Origin: an uncultured delta proteobacterium | GTDB taxonomy: Bacteria > Desulfobacterota > Binatia > Binatales > Binataceae | DNA length: 64,000 nt | Assembly: GCA_963773975.1 (NCBI GenBank) | Contig: CAVZDJ010000011.1 | Span: 13,223-77,222, forward strand | Reading direction: 5' to 3' | Shown here: piece by piece, positions 2,610 through 9,233 of the stretch | Layout: the number at the start of each line of letters is the position of its first letter | Position numbering within the stretch: position 1 is the first letter of the stretch | Translations under genes and position numbers: made by a program | The notes under the pieces: model-generated | The model's input: the letters and a program-made list of their open reading frames with translations, nothing else | The model's database searches: none | What the model was told of the DNA's origin: nothing

Positions 2610-5012
2610 ATGGCCATCATCGAGGAAACTCCCCGCGCCTCGGGCGCCCCTGGTATCGAGCCGCGCTGGACCCACAGCGCCAAAGATGTCGTCGGCACCG
2701 CCTACTCCACGGCGAGCCCGATTTGGTTCACCGCCTCGGGCGGGGTGCTCAACGAAGTCTACTATCCGACGATCGATCGGCCCCAAATCCGCGATCTGCA
2801 GTACCTGGTGACCGACGGCGAAACTTTTTTCCACGACGTGCATCGCAACCAGGAGACCCACACCGAGTATCTCGGCGATCGCGGCCTCGGCGTGCGCATC
2901 ACCAACGCCGACCGCGAAGGGCGCTATCGCGTGGTGATGGAGGTCATCACCGACCCGCATCAACCGTGCGTGCTGCTGGACACCCGCGTGGAGGGCGACG
3001 CCGACCTCCTGCGCCGCCTGCGCCTGTTCGTGCTGCTCTCGCCGCATCTGAACGTCGGCGGATGGGGCAACAACGCCAACGTTGCGCGGATGGCGGGGTA
3101 CGAGTTTCTGACCGCGCACAAGGACAACACCTGGCTGGCTCTGGGAGCCAGCGTGCCCTTCGTGCGGCGCTCCTGCGGCTATGTCGGCAAGACCGACGGA
3201 TGGCAGGACCTGAGCCAGAATTTCAAGCTGGATTGGGAGTTCGCCTCGGCGCCTGACGGCAATGTCGCGCTGACCGCCGAAATCGATCTGCCCGAGGACC
3301 GCCACTTCACGCTCGGGCTCGCGTTCGGCAACGGCCTTCATCGCGCGGTGACCTGCCTCTACCAGTCGCTCGGGGTGCCCTTCGCACAGCACGCGGCACG
3401 CTTCCTCGAGCAATGGAGCCGCGCCTGCGGCCACATGTACCCGCTCGAACGATGGACCGGCGACGGCGGCCACCTCTGCCGCAGGACCCGCGAATTGCTG
3501 CTCGCGCACGAGGACAAGCGCTTCTCCGGCGCGCTCATCGCTTCGCTCAGCATCCCGTGGGGCGAGGTCAAGGGCGACGAGGACCTCGGCGGCTATCATC
3601 TGGTGTGGACGCGCGACATGGTCAATAGCGCGACCGGACTGCTGGCCGGTGGCGACCTTGCGACCCCGGTGCGCGCGCTCATCTATCTCGCCTGCTCGCA
3701 GCGCCCCGACGGCGGCTTCCCGCAGAATTTCTGGATCGACGGCACGCCCTACTGGCAAGGCATCCAGCTCGACGAGGTCGCCTTTCCGATCATGCTGGCG
3801 TATCGCCTGGCGCACGCGGGCGCCACGATGGGCCCGTTGGATCCGTACCCGATGGTGCTGGCGGCCGCGGGCTACCTGATCAAAAAAGGCCCGGTCACGC
3901 CGCAGGAGCGATGGGAGGAGAATAGCGGCTACTCGCCCTCGACGCTGGCGAGCAATATCACGGCGCTAGTATGCGCCTCGAACCTGGCTTATGGGCGGGG
4001 CGACACAACCACCGCGCAGTTCCTGCTGGAATACGCCGACTTCCTCGAATCCCACATTGAGCGCTGGACCGTGACCAAACGGGGCTTCCTGGTGCCGGGC
4101 ATTAAGCGCCACTACGTCCGAATCAATCCCGCGGACCCCGCGGCGACAGTGCCTAATGACGACCCCGACCACGGGATGGTGCCGATCCGCAACCGGCCAC
4201 CCAACGCGCCCTACGAGTTTCCGGCCGCCGAGATCGTCGACGCAGGTTTCCTTGAGCTGGTGCGCTATGGCATCCGCCGCCCTGGCGACCCGCTGGTCGA
4301 GGATTCGCTGCGCGTCGTCGACGCGGTGCTCAAGGCCGACTTCCCGGCCGGGCCGTGCTGGAAACGCTACACGCATGACGGCTACGGCCAGCGCGACGAC
4401 GGCGGACCCTTCGTCGGATGGGGAGTCGGGCGGCCGTGGCCGCTGTTGACCGGTGAGCGCGGCCATTACGAACTCGCCGCCGGACGCGACGTCACGCCGT
4501 ACCTGCGCGCGATGGAAAACTTCGCCACCTCGACGCGGCTTTTGGCCGAGCAAATCTGGGATCGGCCGGACCTGCCCGAGGCGCTGATGCTATTCGGCAA
4601 GCCGACGGGGGCCGCGATGCCCCTGATGTGGGCGCATGCGGAGTACCTGAAACTTTTGCGCTCGGCCGCCGACGGCGTCGTCTTCGATCTCATCCCGGAG
4701 GTCGCCGAGCGCTACCGCAACGGCAAGCCGCGCGGGCCAATCGAAATCTGGAAACACAACCGGCAGATCCAGTCGGTCACGCTCCCGTGCAAGCTGCGGA
4801 TCCAGTCCGATGAGCCCTTCATGCTGCACTGGAGCAAGGACGAATGGCATCACCCCAACGACACCCGTTCGACCCATACCGCGGTGGGACTCGATTTCGT
4901 CGATATCGAATTGATTGCCTTCGATCACGCGCCTGTCCGCTTCACCTTCCGTTGGGAAACGCGCGGACAGTGGGAAGGCCGCGACTACGTAATCGAACTG
5001 CGCGAGCGGTAG
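2610..5012 (+). CDS. GH15 glucoamylase / glucodextranase-family glycoside hydrolase
   Basis: About 800 aa. N-terminal beta-sandwich region (IEPRWTHSAKDVVGTAYS...VYYPTIDRPQIRDLQYLVTDG) and (alpha/alpha)6 catalytic region (WTRDMV..., ERWEENSGYSPSTLA) as in bacterial glucoamylases. AAGGA lies upstream of ATG 2610. Confidence 0.9.
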   Translation: MAIIEETPRASGAPGIEPRWTHSAKDVVGTAYSTASPIWFTASGGVLNEVYYPTIDRPQIRDLQYLVTDGETFFHDVHRNQETHTEYLGDRGLGVRITNADREGRYRVVMEVITDPHQPCVLLDTRVEGDADLLRRLRLFVLLSPHLNVGGWGNNANVARMAGYEFLTAHKDNTWLALGASVPFVRRSCGYVGKTDGWQDLSQNFKLDWEFASAPDGNVALTAEIDLPEDRHFTLGLAFGNGLHRAVTCLYQSLGVPFAQHAARFLEQWSRACGHMYPLERWTGDGGHLCRRTRELLLAHEDKRFSGALIASLSIPWGEVKGDEDLGGYHLVWTRDMVNSATGLLAGGDLATPVRALIYLACSQRPDGGFPQNFWIDGTPYWQGIQLDEVAFPIMLAYRLAHAGATMGPLDPYPMVLAAAGYLIKKGPVTPQERWEENSGYSPSTLASNITALVCASNLAYGRGDTTTAQFLLEYADFLESHIERWTVTKRGFLVPGIKRHYVRINPADPAATVPNDDPDHGMVPIRNRPPNAPYEFPAAEIVDAGFLELVRYGIRRPGDPLVEDSLRVVDAVLKADFPAGPCWKRYTHDGYGQRDDGGPFVGWGVGRPWPLLTGERGHYELAAGRDVTPYLRAMENFATSTRLLAEQIWDRPDLPEALMLFGKPTGAAMPLMWAHAEYLKLLRSAADGVVFDLIPEVAERYRNGKPRGPIEIWKHNRQIQSVTLPCKLRIQSDEPFMLHWSKDEWHHPNDTRSTHTAVGLDFVDIELIAFDHAPVRFTFRWETRGQWEGRDYVIELRER

Positions 5013-5102
5013 GGAAGCGCAAGGCCAATCGTCGGTTTAAGCGCTCTTGCTGTAAAGGCTGGACGCTCACTGCGCGTTGATCGCGATGGCCGATGCCAAA
5101 CT

Positions 5103-5489
5103 TCAATCCCTCTCGACCGGATAACCTGCCTTGTTCCAATTCTCCATCCCGCCGCGCAAAACACATACTTGCTCGAACCCTGCTTGCGAAAGCACTTTCG
5201 CCGCGCTCGCCGAGCGCTTCTCGTTTCGTCAGATGGTTATGATCGGTTTCGCCTTGCTCTCGTTCAGATCCGGGATTTTTCCGGATAACTCCCCGATCGG
5301 AATGTTAGTTGCGCCTGCGATGTGACCGAGCGGTCCAAAGAATTCACCGGCGCTGCGGACGTCTATCAGGGCAATTTTCTCGCCGGCCTCCAATCGTCCC
5401 TTGAGGGTTACGGCGTCCATGAAGCGCGGGGCCTTGAGCCGACGGATCAGCCGGGGCAGAAAAGCGATGACGAGATCGCGCTTGTTCAT
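5103..5489 (-). CDS. single-domain rhodanese sulfurtransferase with in-frame TGA (5231-5229) at the catalytic Cys position; candidate selenoprotein (or point-mutated pseudogene)
   Basis: The track ORF ends ...KPIITI at TGA. The same frame continues RNEKRSASAAKVLSQAGFEQVCVLRGGMENWNKAGYPVERD to TGA 5105-5103. The joined product is a complete rhodanese (LIDVRSAGEF..GHIAGATNIP..PIITI-[TGA]-RNEKRS..GGMENW). ATG 5489 overlaps the upstream stop (ATGA). Confidence 0.65.
5186..5228 (-). promoter_or_regulatory. candidate SECIS-like hairpins immediately downstream of the in-frame TGA
   Basis: In mRNA sense, GCGCUC-GGC-GAGCGC lies 12-26 nt after the UGA and GCGAAAG-UG-CUUUCGC lies 28-43 nt after it. Both have G-containing apical loops at the distance where bacterial SECIS loops lie. 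Not validated against a SECIS model. Confidence 0.35.
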
Positions 5490-6337
5490 GCGGCGCTCCG
5501 CAAGGTGATCGCGTACGCACCCGTGGGCCCGCGGAACGGCTGCGACAGCATGCGGTCGAGCCACAATTCACGCGCTACGCGGAACTGCTCGATGCCGATC
5601 GTCATCCCGTCATGGCCGGCGGCGGGCTGATCGCGATAGGTTCCGAGCAAGCGATCCCACCACGGCAGGTTGAAGCCAAAGTTGCTGTTGGTCTCGCCGA
5701 CCACGATCGAATGGTGGACGCGATGCATGTCGGGCGTGACCAGGAGCCATCGAAGATAGCGATCCAACCGGACGGGAATGCGAACATTGCCGTGGCTGAA
5801 CATCGAGGTCGCGTTCAGCAGGACCTCGAAGATAAGCACGCCGAGTGCGGGCGCTCCCAGGACGACGACCACAGCAAACTTGATCAGCATCGAAAGAACG
5901 ATCTCGATCGGGTGGAAGCGCGCGCCCGTGGTTACGTCGAAGTCAAGATCGGCGTGGTGCATACGATGCACCCGCCACAGCGCGGGAACCGCGTGAAACA
6001 TCACGTGCTGTAGATAGATTGCGGCATCGAGCAGCACCATCGAAGCGATCACTGCCATCCACGGCGGAGCCGGGACGTTGTTGAGCAATCCCCAGCCCCG
6101 ATTCGCTCCAAGCAGCGCCAAAACCACGGCTGTGGTTGGAAGCACAATCCGGATGAGAGCCGTATTTAGCGCGACGACCGCCAGGTTGCTGGGCCAGCGC
6201 CTGAACCTCGAATAGGACCTTGTCCGGCGGGGCGCCGCCGCTTCCCACAGGGCCATCGCGGTGAACACCGCAAAAAAGGCTCCCAGTCTTATGGTCGCTT
6301 CGTTAATCGGATTGTTGACTCCAATGACTCCAATCAA
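5486..6337 (-). CDS. fatty acid hydroxylase / sterol desaturase-family membrane protein
   Basis: Multi-TM protein with His-box motifs (HVMFHAVPALWRVHRMHHAD; HRVHHS) typical of the di-iron fatty acid hydroxylase superfamily. Confidence 0.85.
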   Translation of the reverse strand: MIGVIGVNNPINEATIRLGAFFAVFTAMALWEAAAPRRTRSYSRFRRWPSNLAVVALNTALIRIVLPTTAVVLALLGANRGWGLLNNVPAPPWMAVIASMVLLDAAIYLQHVMFHAVPALWRVHRMHHADLDFDVTTGARFHPIEIVLSMLIKFAVVVVLGAPALGVLIFEVLLNATSMFSHGNVRIPVRLDRYLRWLLVTPDMHRVHHSIVVGETNSNFGFNLPWWDRLLGTYRDQPAAGHDGMTIGIEQFRVARELWLDRMLSQPFRGPTGAYAITLRSAA

Positions 6338-7044: not shown

Positions 7045-8094
7045 GTGTCTACATTCGACCTGATGGCGCTCGCGCGGCTAATCCTGGTGACTGGCAAGGG
7101 CGGCACGGGCAAAAGCACGGTCGCCGCCGCGCTCGCGCTCGGTCTCGCGCGACGCCGCCCAACGACGCTGGTCGACCTTGACCAGCGGATGTGGGCGGCG
7201 CGGATGCTCGGTCTCGAGCCGGATAACAACCTCGACCCGATGGCTAAGCGGGACGCGGTAGCCAATCCCGGCGCGATTGCCAACCTGGAAACGATCTCGC
7301 TCAGCGCAAGCACCGAGCTCGAAGCCTTCATCGAACGGATAGTGCCGATCAAGGCGGTCGCGCGCCGGATGCTCCAAAGCCGCACCTTCGGCTACGTCAG
7401 TGCGGCGCTGCCGGGGCTGGAGGCGTTCCTGATGCTCGAGCGGCTGCGAATCGTCGCCGGGCGCGCCGCGCTGGAGGACCGCTACGTGGTGGTCGACGCG
7501 CCCGCCACCGGCAGCGCGCTGGAGTTACTCTCGGTGCCGGGGGCGCTGGAGCAAATCGCTCCGCTCGGAACGCTCAATCGGCTCGCCGCCAATGTTGGGA
7601 GTTTTCTCGCCGACCCGACGCGCTTCGCCGTGATACTGACGCTGACGCCGCAGGAGCTGGCGCTCGGCGAAGCTCTGGAGGCGTCCGCCATGCTCCGCGG
7701 ACGGCTCGGTGTGAGCGTCGCGGCGGCCGCGCTCAACTGCGTACCGGGTCCGTTGTTCAGCGCGCGCGAGATGAAGGCGCTCGACGCGCTCCATGCGTAT
7801 CCAGGATGCGCGCGCCTTGCGCGATGGCGCGACGGCGCGGGACGCTTCGCGGCGCGGGTGCGCCGCGAAGCGTCCCGCGCCGGGCTCGCTGTGGTCGAAC
7901 TGCCGATGCTGTTCAGCCCGGCGATGCGCCGGGCCGAACTCGAAGGGCTGAGCCGCGCGCTGGAAGCGGGGCTGTTCCCGGCCGAGCCGGGAACAGCCCC
8001 GCCTCCAGCGCAAAAAGCCGCGCAAGCGCCGAGCGCCGCGCTGCGCACGGCGCAACCGCCAACATCCCCGGCGAAGCCGCCAACATCCCGATGA
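7045..8094 (+). CDS. ArsA/Get3-family P-loop ATPase (divergent), copy 1
   Basis: GTG start. Deviant Walker A (LVTGKGGTGKST), switch-like DAPATGSALELL, and a low-complexity Pro/Ala tail containing a long palindrome. Confidence 0.8.
   Translation: MSTFDLMALARLILVTGKGGTGKSTVAAALALGLARRRPTTLVDLDQRMWAARMLGLEPDNNLDPMAKRDAVANPGAIANLETISLSASTELEAFIERIVPIKAVARRMLQSRTFGYVSAALPGLEAFLMLERLRIVAGRAALEDRYVVVDAPATGSALELLSVPGALEQIAPLGTLNRLAANVGSFLADPTRFAVILTLTPQELALGEALEASAMLRGRLGVSVAAAALNCVPGPLFSAREMKALDALHAYPGCARLARWRDGAGRFAARVRREASRAGLAVVELPMLFSPAMRRAELEGLSRALEAGLFPAEPGTAPPPAQKAAQAPSAALRTAQPPTSPAKPPTSR
7957..8011. repeat. 55-nt near-perfect inverted repeat (26-nt arms, 1 mismatch, 3-nt centre) inside the 3' end of ArsA-like gene 1
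   Basis: The left arm GCGCTGGAAGCGGGGCTGTTCCCGGC, the centre CGA and the right arm GCCGGGAACAGCCCCGCCTCCAGCGC were read directly from rows 7921-8020. Confidence 0.9.
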
Positions 8095-9233
8095 CCGCCG
8101 CCGCGCCCTCGCCCGGCCTGCTCGACGGCCGCCTGCTCGTATGCCTTGGCCCCGGCGGCGTCGGCAAGACCACGGCGAGCGCGGCGCTGGCGCTTCGCGC
8201 CGCGCTCGCCGGGCGGCGGGTCGACGTGATGACCGTCGACCCGGCGCCCCGCTTGCTCGACGCGCTGGGGCTCGGCGGCGACGACGCCGCCGAGCCCCGC
8301 GAGGTGGCATTGCGAAATCTTCAAAATATGGACGACCCGAGCGGCCGCGCCGATTCAGCGGGTGTGCGCAGGCGGCCGGCGCGACCCGCCGGCCGCCTGC
8401 GCGCACTGCGCCTGGACCCCAAGCGAACCTTCGACGCGCTCGTCGCGCGCCACGCACCCTCGCCCGCCGCCGCCGACGCGATCATGCAAAACCGCATCTA
8501 CCGCAATCTCTCGCAGGCGCTGGCCGGCGTGGGCGACTACATGGCGATGGAGCGGCTGCTCGAGCTGAGTGAGGACCCCTCGACCGGCCTGGTGGTGCTC
8601 GACACGCCGCCCGCGCGCGAGGCGCTGGACTTCCTTGACGCGCCGCGCCGCTTGCTCGACCTGCTCAACTCGCGCGCCGTTACGCTGCTGGGCGGGGGGG
8701 TGCGTCGCGGCTTCAGCGTTGTCGACCTAGCCGCGCGCGCCGTGCTTTCCGCCTTCGACCGTCTGACTGGGCTCCATCTGCTCGGCGACGTGCAGGCCTT
8801 CGTGCGCAGTTTCGACGGGATGTATGCCGGATTTGCCGAGCGCGCCGCGCGGGTGCAGCAACTACTCATCGCCGGCGACACCGCGGTGGTCGTAGTCACC
8901 ACCGCCGAGCCCCAGCGCGTCGCGCAGGCGCAGGAGTTCCTCGCGGCTTTACGCACCGCCGGGATCGCGCCGCGCGCGGTGATCGTGAACCGCACGCTGC
9001 CCGCGATAACGCCGGCGGAGCAGATCGCGCCACTTGCGCCGGCGCTTAGGCGCAAACTCGCGCGGGCGGCCGCGGAGTTCGCGGCGCTGCATCAACGCGA
9101 GGCGGCCGCGATAGCGTCTTTGCGCGCGGGCGGCCCGGCGGGATTGAAGCTGTTCGCTATGCCCGACCTCGGACGCGAGCCGGCCGCGCTTGCCGATCTC
9201 GCCCGGCTCGGGCGGACTCTTACGCTGCTTTGA
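8091..9233 (+). CDS. ArsA/Get3-family P-loop ATPase (divergent), copy 2
   Basis: ATG 8091 overlaps the stop of copy 1 (ATGA). MTAAAPSPGLLDGRLLVCLGPGGVGKTTASAALA..., DTPPAREALDFLDAP. The track ORF start at 7806 is an out-of-gene N-terminal extension. Confidence 0.8.
   Translation: MTAAAPSPGLLDGRLLVCLGPGGVGKTTASAALALRAALAGRRVDVMTVDPAPRLLDALGLGGDDAAEPREVALRNLQNMDDPSGRADSAGVRRRPARPAGRLRALRLDPKRTFDALVARHAPSPAAADAIMQNRIYRNLSQALAGVGDYMAMERLLELSEDPSTGLVVLDTPPAREALDFLDAPRRLLDLLNSRAVTLLGGGVRRGFSVVDLAARAVLSAFDRLTGLHLLGDVQAFVRSFDGMYAGFAERAARVQQLLIAGDTAVVVVTTAEPQRVAQAQEFLAALRTAGIAPRAVIVNRTLPAITPAEQIAPLAPALRRKLARAAAEFAALHQREAAAIASLRAGGPAGLKLFAMPDLGREPAALADLARLGRTLTLL

Follow-up and report, generated by a model that had tools for sequence, protein, structure and literature searches.

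Rhodaneses and rhodanese-related sulfurtransferases that contain selenocysteine (Sec) have been predicted by bSECISearch and in the Global Ocean Sampling (GOS) selenoproteome, which has four rhodanese or sulfurtransferase families (PMC2398784), and later reviews list Sec rhodaneses as forms 1-5 (PMC9312934, PMC13188914). These five forms carry the motifs UxxS, UxxG, CxU, UxxG and UxxxxU, respectively, according to a 2026 review, in which forms 1, 2 and 4 are represented by WP_010941598.1, MBM9537886.1 and MCY3690685.1 (PMC13188914). An earlier note, made from the sequence alone, had mentioned such sulfurtransferases as known from selenoproteome surveys, and these reports bear it out. Here a further candidate is described from a DNA stretch of 64,000 nucleotides (hereafter the window; contig CAVZDJ010000011.1 of assembly GCA_963773975.1, positions 13,223 to 77,222), which belongs to an uncultured delta proteobacterium of the Binataceae, a family within the candidate phylum Binatota. 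The gene in question encodes a small rhodanese on the minus strand and is interrupted by an in-frame TGA at the catalytic cysteine (Cys) position. With a probability of about 0.9, this codon is read as Sec and the gene is a genuine selenoprotein gene; the earlier note had proposed a Sec sulfurtransferase, and every comparative check that was run favoured Sec. The elements of the gene are as follows.

5103 to 5489, minus strand: recoded open reading frame (ORF) of 128 codons including one UGA (Sec87), followed by a terminal TGA; its translation is a single-domain rhodanese.
5229 to 5231, minus strand: internal in-frame UGA, the proposed Sec codon, in the loop U-R-N-E-K-R-S; it aligns with the catalytic Cys.
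5103 to 5105, minus strand: terminal stop TGA of the rhodanese gene, with the same end (plus or minus one codon) in most relatives.

Translated from the ATG at 5489-5487, the minus-strand ORF reads MNKRDL...KAKPIITI*RNEKRSASAAKVLSQAGFEQVCVLRGGMENWNKAGYPVERD*, with 41 sense codons between the two TGAs, as the earlier note had stated for the frame beyond 5231-5229. In a Pfam search, the product with Cys substituted at the internal TGA matched the Rhodanese family (PF00581) over residues 28-120, covering profile positions 4-101 of 102 (E 4.6e-19), and the whole domain was recovered only from the joined halves, never from one half. The proposal that the gene makes a complete single-domain rhodanese only when joined thus holds, and so does the placement of the TGA at the active-site Cys. 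Sequence alignment with solved rhodanese domains in the PDB pairs the internal TGA with the catalytic Cys, the best match being 5ve3 with 'TVCRAGGRS' (E 2.7e-17), and the same column is an invariant Cys across 22 full-length homologues, in which R92 is also invariant and S93 nearly so. The loop U-R-N-E-K-R-S accordingly has the six residues and the terminal R-(S/T) of a rhodanese active site, with Sec in place of Cys. In two relatives (L034:2282-2290 and L035:2447-2455) Gly replaces the otherwise invariant Arg right after the Sec codon (U-G-T-E-K-R-S).

The TGA is a shared feature of the lineage. DNA of relatives was fetched from metagenomes (JGI, ENA, NCBI and Logan assemblies), giving 37 loci (L002-L022, L024-L037, L039, L041) and 29 distinct sequences including that of the window. 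Together with six metagenome-assembled genomes (MAGs), 43 related loci, the metagenomic ones from soil, have TGA at the Sec codon, and TAA or TAG occurs there in none. Among seven species-representative MAGs of Binatia type, six have TGA (L085, CAWENP01; L087, CAWCMA01; L088, JAJXYF01; L089, CAWHOQ01; L090, DAHVFB01; L091, JBOHWL01; labelled 'Candidatus Binataceae bacterium', 'Deltaproteobacteria bacterium', 'uncultured delta proteobacterium' or 'uncultured proteobacterium') and one, L086 (CAVWAA01), has TGT. The closest of the MAGs, L085, has about 90% DNA identity with the window and synteny over about 12 kb, so the source organism is a close relative of that MAG. At the protein level, a database search returned more than 15 proteins of 61-86% identity that all end in '...I(T/A)I' directly before the TGA site, the closest of them (81-86%) being truncated variants without a DedA domain; homologues of about 50% identity are uninterrupted at the site and read 'LVC(R/K)TDKRSASAA'. 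The homologue comparison suggested in the earlier note therefore gives Cys for the distant relatives and TGA for every one of the 43 close ones. A sequencing or assembly error that turned a true TGC or TGT into TGA would need only one base to differ, and L001, which alone repeats the window's sequence exactly, is not independent of it; the same base recurs, however, in dozens of independent samples and assemblies from the four sources, and the probability of such an error is practically negligible.

In a neighbour-joining tree the Sec forms make up one clade with two Cys tips nested inside it (L023 with TGC and L086 with TGT), and all outgroups have Cys; nested Cys tips and Cys outgroups are the usual pattern of Sec/Cys exchange. 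The TGT of L086 (10229-10231), which is a Binataceae MAG, lies beside L036 within the Sec clade and is accompanied by the exact hairpin described below, which suggests a recent Sec-to-Cys change with the hairpin still present. In the second nested Cys form, L023, both the hairpin and the loop peptide are altered. As for the use of TGA elsewhere, 49 genes of the window have a called stop, distributed as 23 TGA, 18 TAG and 8 TAA; a genome-wide reassignment of TGA is excluded because TGA is the commonest ordinary stop.

The 41 codons 3' of the TGA are kept as protein in the relatives, and their change is mostly synonymous; the pairwise ratio of nonsynonymous to synonymous change (pN/pS) over codons +1 to +38 is 0.27, indicating purifying selection. 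Upstream figures were not used, as fixed offsets cross insertions and deletions there and make them unreliable. The reading frame ends at about the same point throughout, with about nine loci extending 3-12 codons beyond it. No decay downstream of the TGA is seen in close relatives, and more than 40 loci have an unbroken frame both before and after it, which settles in favour of conservation a check that the earlier note had proposed for these codons. These data bear directly on whether the gene is a pseudogene, in which a TGC or TGT at the catalytic Cys suffered a nonsense mutation and the downstream codons are a decaying remnant. Such an origin would take a single third-base change from Cys to opal, the window copy has also lost its DedA domain, and a few relatives have frame problems elsewhere (L039, L041, L085). 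Against it stand the same TGA in 43 loci, with more than 30 distinct sequences that have diverged to a pS of about 0.5-0.6, the intact downstream frame with its low pN/pS and common end, and the conservation of the DedA-less form itself in several variants of 81-86% identity, all of which make a pseudogene extremely unlikely. The frame changes within the gene lie upstream of the TGA in L039 and L041 (about 3060-3230) and between the DedA and rhodanese domains in L085 (9998-10001); they may be indel errors or real decay, and that the L085 MAG is a long-read assembly is an assumption only.

Codons +1 and +2 vary only among synonymous Arg and Thr codons (CGA/CGG/CGC/CGT and ACC/ACT/ACG, respectively), and from this synonymous-only change right after the TGA it follows that translation passes through the TGA with no restart further down. 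The same observation weighs on the possibility that the TGA is a true stop, leaving a non-catalytic fragment of 86 residues and a downstream part that is untranslated or separately started, as in a split rhodanese. Gene callers do annotate the rhodanese in this way, and an ATG or GTG stands at codon +12 in many relatives. Codons +1 to +11 (R-T-E-K-R-S-A-S-A-A), which precede any restart, nevertheless keep their protein sequence, with third bases that vary synonymously at +1 to +3; codon +12 is no start codon in several members (ACG, GTC, ATC, CTG, TTA); and although a fragment that lacks the active-site loop could not act as a rhodanese, the loop residues R92 and S93 are conserved. A true stop is thus highly unlikely.

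Two hairpins follow the internal TGA in the window sequence.

5203 to 5217, minus strand: hairpin GCGCUC-GGC-GAGCGC, resembling a selenocysteine insertion sequence (SECIS); recognized from the consensus fold, frozen synonymous sites and the constraints on bacterial SECIS elements (bSECIS).
5186 to 5201, minus strand: second hairpin GCGAAA-GUGC-UUUCGC, predicted in the window sequence and probably not part of the element.

The first has a stem of 6 bp and a loop of 3 nt, starts 11 nt after the UGA with a UGA-to-loop distance of 17 nt, and has a predicted energy of -8.3 kcal/mol. The four bSECIS constraints (PMC13188914 Fig. 2) comprise a loop of 3-9 nt with a stem of 4-16 bp, a G in the first two loop positions, a UGA-to-loop distance of 16-37 nt and a minimum free energy (MFE) of -7.5 kcal/mol or below, and the hairpin at 5217-5203 satisfies them. 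The first base of its loop is G, and in 28 of 29 sequences the second is G or U. When 23 sequences were folded to a consensus, one element was retained, GCGCUC-GNC-GAGCGC. This element overlaps the codons for K-R-S-x-S-A, in which the third positions +14, +17, +20 and +23 are invariant in all 29 distinct sequences; at the third position +26, 28 sequences have C and one has U, which retains a G.U pair. Outside the hairpin, no third position from -12 to +89 is invariant except in a Met codon, and pS is 0.17 in the hairpin codons vs 0.59 in the remaining downstream region. Five consecutive synonymous sites of the hairpin are invariant across 29-32 distinct Sec sequences. The earlier note had placed two hairpins 12-43 nt after the TGA and proposed a SECIS-model check; both hairpins exist in the window, and the first passes the bSECIS model at the canonical distance with conservation at synonymous sites, whereas the second is not conserved. 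As a functional part the hairpin at 5201-5186 was rejected, since its sequence varies in relatives (e.g., L002 and L011) and it is absent from the consensus fold.

Several observations weigh against the Sec reading. With E. coli SelA, SelB and SelD as queries, tblastn gave no match in the 64-kb window, and the flanks of the Binatia-type loci contain no selA, selB, selD or transfer RNA for Sec (tRNA-Sec); 64 kb of a multi-megabase genome cannot settle the presence of this machinery. A literature search combining Binatota with selenocysteine returned nothing relevant. For the hairpin, no compensatory double changes occur among the 23 sequences, only invariance and the one G.U change, and the loose bSECIS model is passed after about 12% of all TGA trinucleotides in this window of 65% GC. 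In addition, the 81-nt stretch around the TGA, taken as a single sequence, folds no better than shuffles (z = +1.1). The hairpin alone is weak evidence because of this folding result and the 12% pass rate, and it is the comparative data that carry the case. As a control, six distinct Cys-form outgroup sequences encoding the same peptide K/R-R-S-A-S-A-A were compared: four break or shorten the hairpin by synonymous changes (TCA, GCA, GCC, AGT, AAA/AGA), and two (L167 and L170/L171) carry the exact hairpin sequence GCGCTCGGCGAGCGC in their KRSASA codons. Codon bias therefore contributes but does not explain the invariance of the hairpin across 32 Sec sequences. Finally, L001 repeats the TGA with 100% identity to the window and hence adds no independent observation.

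Other searches of the window concerned the Sec machinery and further recoded genes. ARAGORN found no tRNA in the 64 kb, the Rfam search of the whole window at the gathering threshold gave no match, a permissive search of 5080-5300 gave only noise (E > 6), and the Pfam census of 20 window proteins contained no Sec-pathway domains. Matches to 'SelB' in L101 and L107 were rejected, both being IF-2. A coding-potential scan for other recoded TGAs in the window and in L003-L041 returned only ordinary gene junctions and antisense artefacts; the scan is weak, flagging the rhodanese TGA itself only in L025. A second candidate came from L087, one of the MAG contigs with the Sec rhodanese, which also has an AhpC-TSA/Prx-like gene at 2440-2961 on the plus strand (Pfam E 4e-22 across the site). 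Its TGA at 2572-2574 lies in the motif FYRGYW-U-PKC (UxxC), and the hairpin AGCGCC-AGUUGC-GGCGCU is found 10 nt downstream. More than 110 database clusters of homologues with 72-92% identity are annotated only from just after the TGA; Cys homologues that span the full length have 173 residues. Selenoprotein families listed in the literature include Prx-like UxxC proteins (PMC9312934, PMC5029168). From these features the L087 gene looks like a second selenoprotein gene of a systematically mis-called family, and it would offer indirect support for Sec use in a related MAG.

These results bear on a fourth possibility, that the UGA is read through without selenium by a near-cognate Trp, Cys or Arg tRNA or by a suppressor tRNA, stimulated by the hairpin. 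It would agree with the failure to find Sec machinery in the window, the part of the source genome that was searched, and stem-loops can stimulate read-through in general. Function at the site, however, calls for a chalcogen nucleophile, and with Trp or Arg it would lack activity; TGA is the only stop codon used there, the hairpin lies at 11 nt and has G first in its loop, Sec alternates with Cys, and a related MAG has a second candidate, of UxxC type, all of which match the SelB system specifically; and TGA is a common ordinary stop in the window. Read-through of this kind is very unlikely, and pseudogene, true stop, read-through and sequencing error taken together have only a slim chance of accounting for the locus.

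For the favoured reading as a Sec codon, we infer Sec insertion, SelB binding and chemistry from the comparative evidence. SelB with Sec-tRNA(Sec) would be recruited by the mRNA hairpin at 5217-5203, and Sec would be inserted at the UGA at 5231-5229 to give a single-domain rhodanese of 128 residues with Sec87 as the nucleophile. By analogy with Cys rhodaneses, Sec87 may take up sulfane sulfur (or selenium) as an Se-S(-) or Se-Se(-) adduct and hand it to an acceptor. The ancestor was a DedA/VTT-rhodanese fusion translationally coupled to a membrane FA_hydroxylase and accompanied by a divergent ArsR-helix-turn-helix (HTH)-rhodanese regulator, with DedA later lost in the lineage of the window. 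The best guess for the physiological role, held with low confidence, is sulfane sulfur or selenium handling at the membrane under an ArsR-type sensor.

This proposed history draws on the gene context of the rhodanese, for which three further features are relevant.

5486 to 6337, minus strand: FA_hydroxylase (PF04116) gene, the conserved upstream partner of the rhodanese across phyla; Pfam label in L001.
5486 to 5489, minus strand: ATGA start/stop overlap with the FA_hydroxylase gene (ATG 5489-5487, TGA 5488-5486).
5460 to 5475, minus strand: junction (about 5467) of an in-frame deletion of DedA/VTT, roughly 196 codons; blastn break vs L085.

The FA_hydroxylase product has a weak, below-cutoff match to NCBIfam OlsE. 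Throughout Binatia, Burkholderiales and Gammaproteobacteria the rhodanese makes up the C-terminal domain in a DedA/VTT (PF09335) membrane protein whose gene lies behind an FA_hydroxylase gene, and about 35 loci show the order FA_hydroxylase, DedA, rhodanese. In relatives, an ArsR-HTH-rhodanese gene is divergently transcribed beside the pair of FA_hydroxylase and DedA-rhodanese genes, and in some lineages (P0020, L111, L167, L168) the hydroxylase is fused or coupled directly to the rhodanese. The DedA/VTT domain is absent from the window copy, which is therefore no DedA-rhodanese fusion, as its relatives are. A blastn alignment of L085 with the window breaks at window position 5467, and L085:9374-9960 has no window counterpart; what is left in frame in the window is the original start (MNKR...) and the last half-helix (AFLPRLIRRLK). 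By this alignment, the window rhodanese descends from a DedA-rhodanese fusion that lost about 196 codons in frame. The DedA-less short form occurs in four database variants with 81-86% identity (P0002-P0005) and is therefore maintained rather than a one-off accident. L002 and L085 share the ATGA overlap, there with the complete DedA-rhodanese fusion as the downstream gene, and the coupling is inherited from the ancestral FA_hydroxylase/DedA-rhodanese gene pair; the overlap with the upstream fatty-acid-hydroxylase gene had been pointed out in the earlier note and is real, at 5489-5486.

Some individual loci of this module deserve mention. The DedA domain of L002 contains an in-frame TAG at 4976-4978 (GE*VLTS vs the relatives' GEYVLTS, with Tyr), at which the gene is split by the caller in an otherwise intact DedA-Sec-rhodanese; an error or a recent nonsense mutation might explain it, as might some other cause. 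Genes for ArsA, ArsR, methyltransferases and HSP20 are located near the module in the same locus. In the window, two ArsA-like ATPase ORFs at 7045-9233 on the plus strand overlap by about 290 nt in different frames in the mechanical ORF list, and the second probably starts only near 8100. Neighbours of the ArsA, ArsR, HSP20 and methyltransferase types hint that the context has to do with metalloids or stress. Next after the Cys-form rhodanese comes a DsrE-like gene in three loci (L165:1314-1664, L166:455-826, L100:6692-7144), and there is a following SHOCT-domain gene in L165 and the P0013 contig; both may be further members of the module.

A possible connection between this module and selenium metabolism is seen among the Cys forms, as selenium genes lie no more than 10 kb from the module in four of the 23 Cys-form loci that contain it. 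For instance, in L104 (7772-15178) a multihaem cytochrome is followed by tRNA-Sec, selB and selA, starting 1.3 kb downstream, and SelD is encoded near the module in L100 (4182-13135), L105 (7469-18343) and L106 (100-8074). SelD is fused to a pyridine-nucleotide (NADH) oxidoreductase domain in L100 and L105, the L106 copy being cut by the contig end, and in L100 genes of DsrE-like, methyltransferase, NifS-like and CDF type lie ahead of it. The same scan covered about 50 further rhodanese loci, and sel genes were near none of them. Selenite resistance has been tied to DedA in work cited by PMC10127716 (reference 18 therein), and according to the 2026 review prokaryotes have no known high-affinity transporter specific for selenium (PMC13188914). 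Given the sel neighbours and the cited DedA-selenite link, the module may therefore serve selenium acquisition. In its full form this proposal, that ArsR-HTH-rhodanese, FA_hydroxylase and DedA-rhodanese constitute a dedicated uptake and trafficking system for selenium, or for selenium and sulfane sulfur, that feeds SelD, is rather doubtful; DedA would be the membrane carrier and the rhodanese a perselenide carrier. All four sel-adjacent loci are betaproteobacterial and so may not be independent. If it were true, the Binatia version would be a selenoprotein that helps to acquire the selenium it itself needs.

Automatic annotation truncates the gene everywhere, at '...ITI', so that a whole clade of candidate catalytic selenoproteins in abundant uncultured soil Binatia is invisible in databases, and Binatota can be added to the lineages that appear to use Sec. 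The Sec clade, its two Cys revertants and the Cys outgroups provide a natural series for testing the benefit of Sec to a sulfurtransferase. With regard to the origin of the Sec site, the hairpin, which is already present by codon choice in some Cys forms, may have pre-dated the Cys-to-Sec switch, and one substitution from TGC to TGA may have sufficed to make the site decodable. The gene context, together with the selenium-gene neighbours of the Cys forms, offers a testable lead on the function of DedA-rhodanese fusions.

Compared with known systems, Sec-containing rhodaneses have been reported since 2005-2008, and the present clade is a new lineage, possibly a new subfamily, of this known class. 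It shares with them the single rhodanese domain (PF00581/COG0607), the Sec in place of the catalytic Cys at the start of the loop, and a far larger number of Cys homologues. The loop in this clade is U-R-[TNA]-[EGDQ]-[KRQ]-R-S, that is, UxxE in most members and UxxG in two (L021 and L087), and by motif alone most members differ from forms 1, 2 and 4 (UxxS, UxxG and UxxG), although the clade could coincide with one of these three. Form 3 (CxU) is represented by NF041203 rhodanese_LYCAU, against which the window protein scores 57.1 bits vs a cutoff of 115; its Sec is at the canonical Cys, and it has no CxU. Against NF045694, the TsoB rhodanese/DsbD fusion of form 5, it scores 24.3 bits vs a cutoff of 805. 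The clade further differs from the listed forms in its occurrence in Binatia-type soil bacteria and in its ancestral DedA/VTT fusion. The hairpin agrees with the bSECIS model in its coding-region position immediately 3' of the UGA, its spacing, its stem and its G-first loop (PMC13188914 Fig. 2). Unlike bSECIS elements such as that of fdhF, it is very small, with no bulged U and no lower stem supported by covariation. The minimal SECIS of E. coli fdhF is an upper stem-loop located 11 nt after the UGA, the same spacer as in the hairpin described here. Among solved structures, the rhodanese domain of BpPRF, a persulfide dioxygenase-rhodanese fusion (PDB 5ve3/5ve4), is the best relative, aligning without gaps across the active site and having the same fold extent; BpPRF, GlpE and PspE, however, use Cys, have another domain context and show only moderate identity to the window protein. 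DedA-rhodanese fusions were noted in a survey of DedA subfamilies, where their function was called unclear (PMC10127716). They have the same architecture as the relatives of the window gene, whereas the window copy is without DedA, and the survey reported neither a Sec form nor the FA_hydroxylase and ArsR-rhodanese context that accompanies the fusions here.

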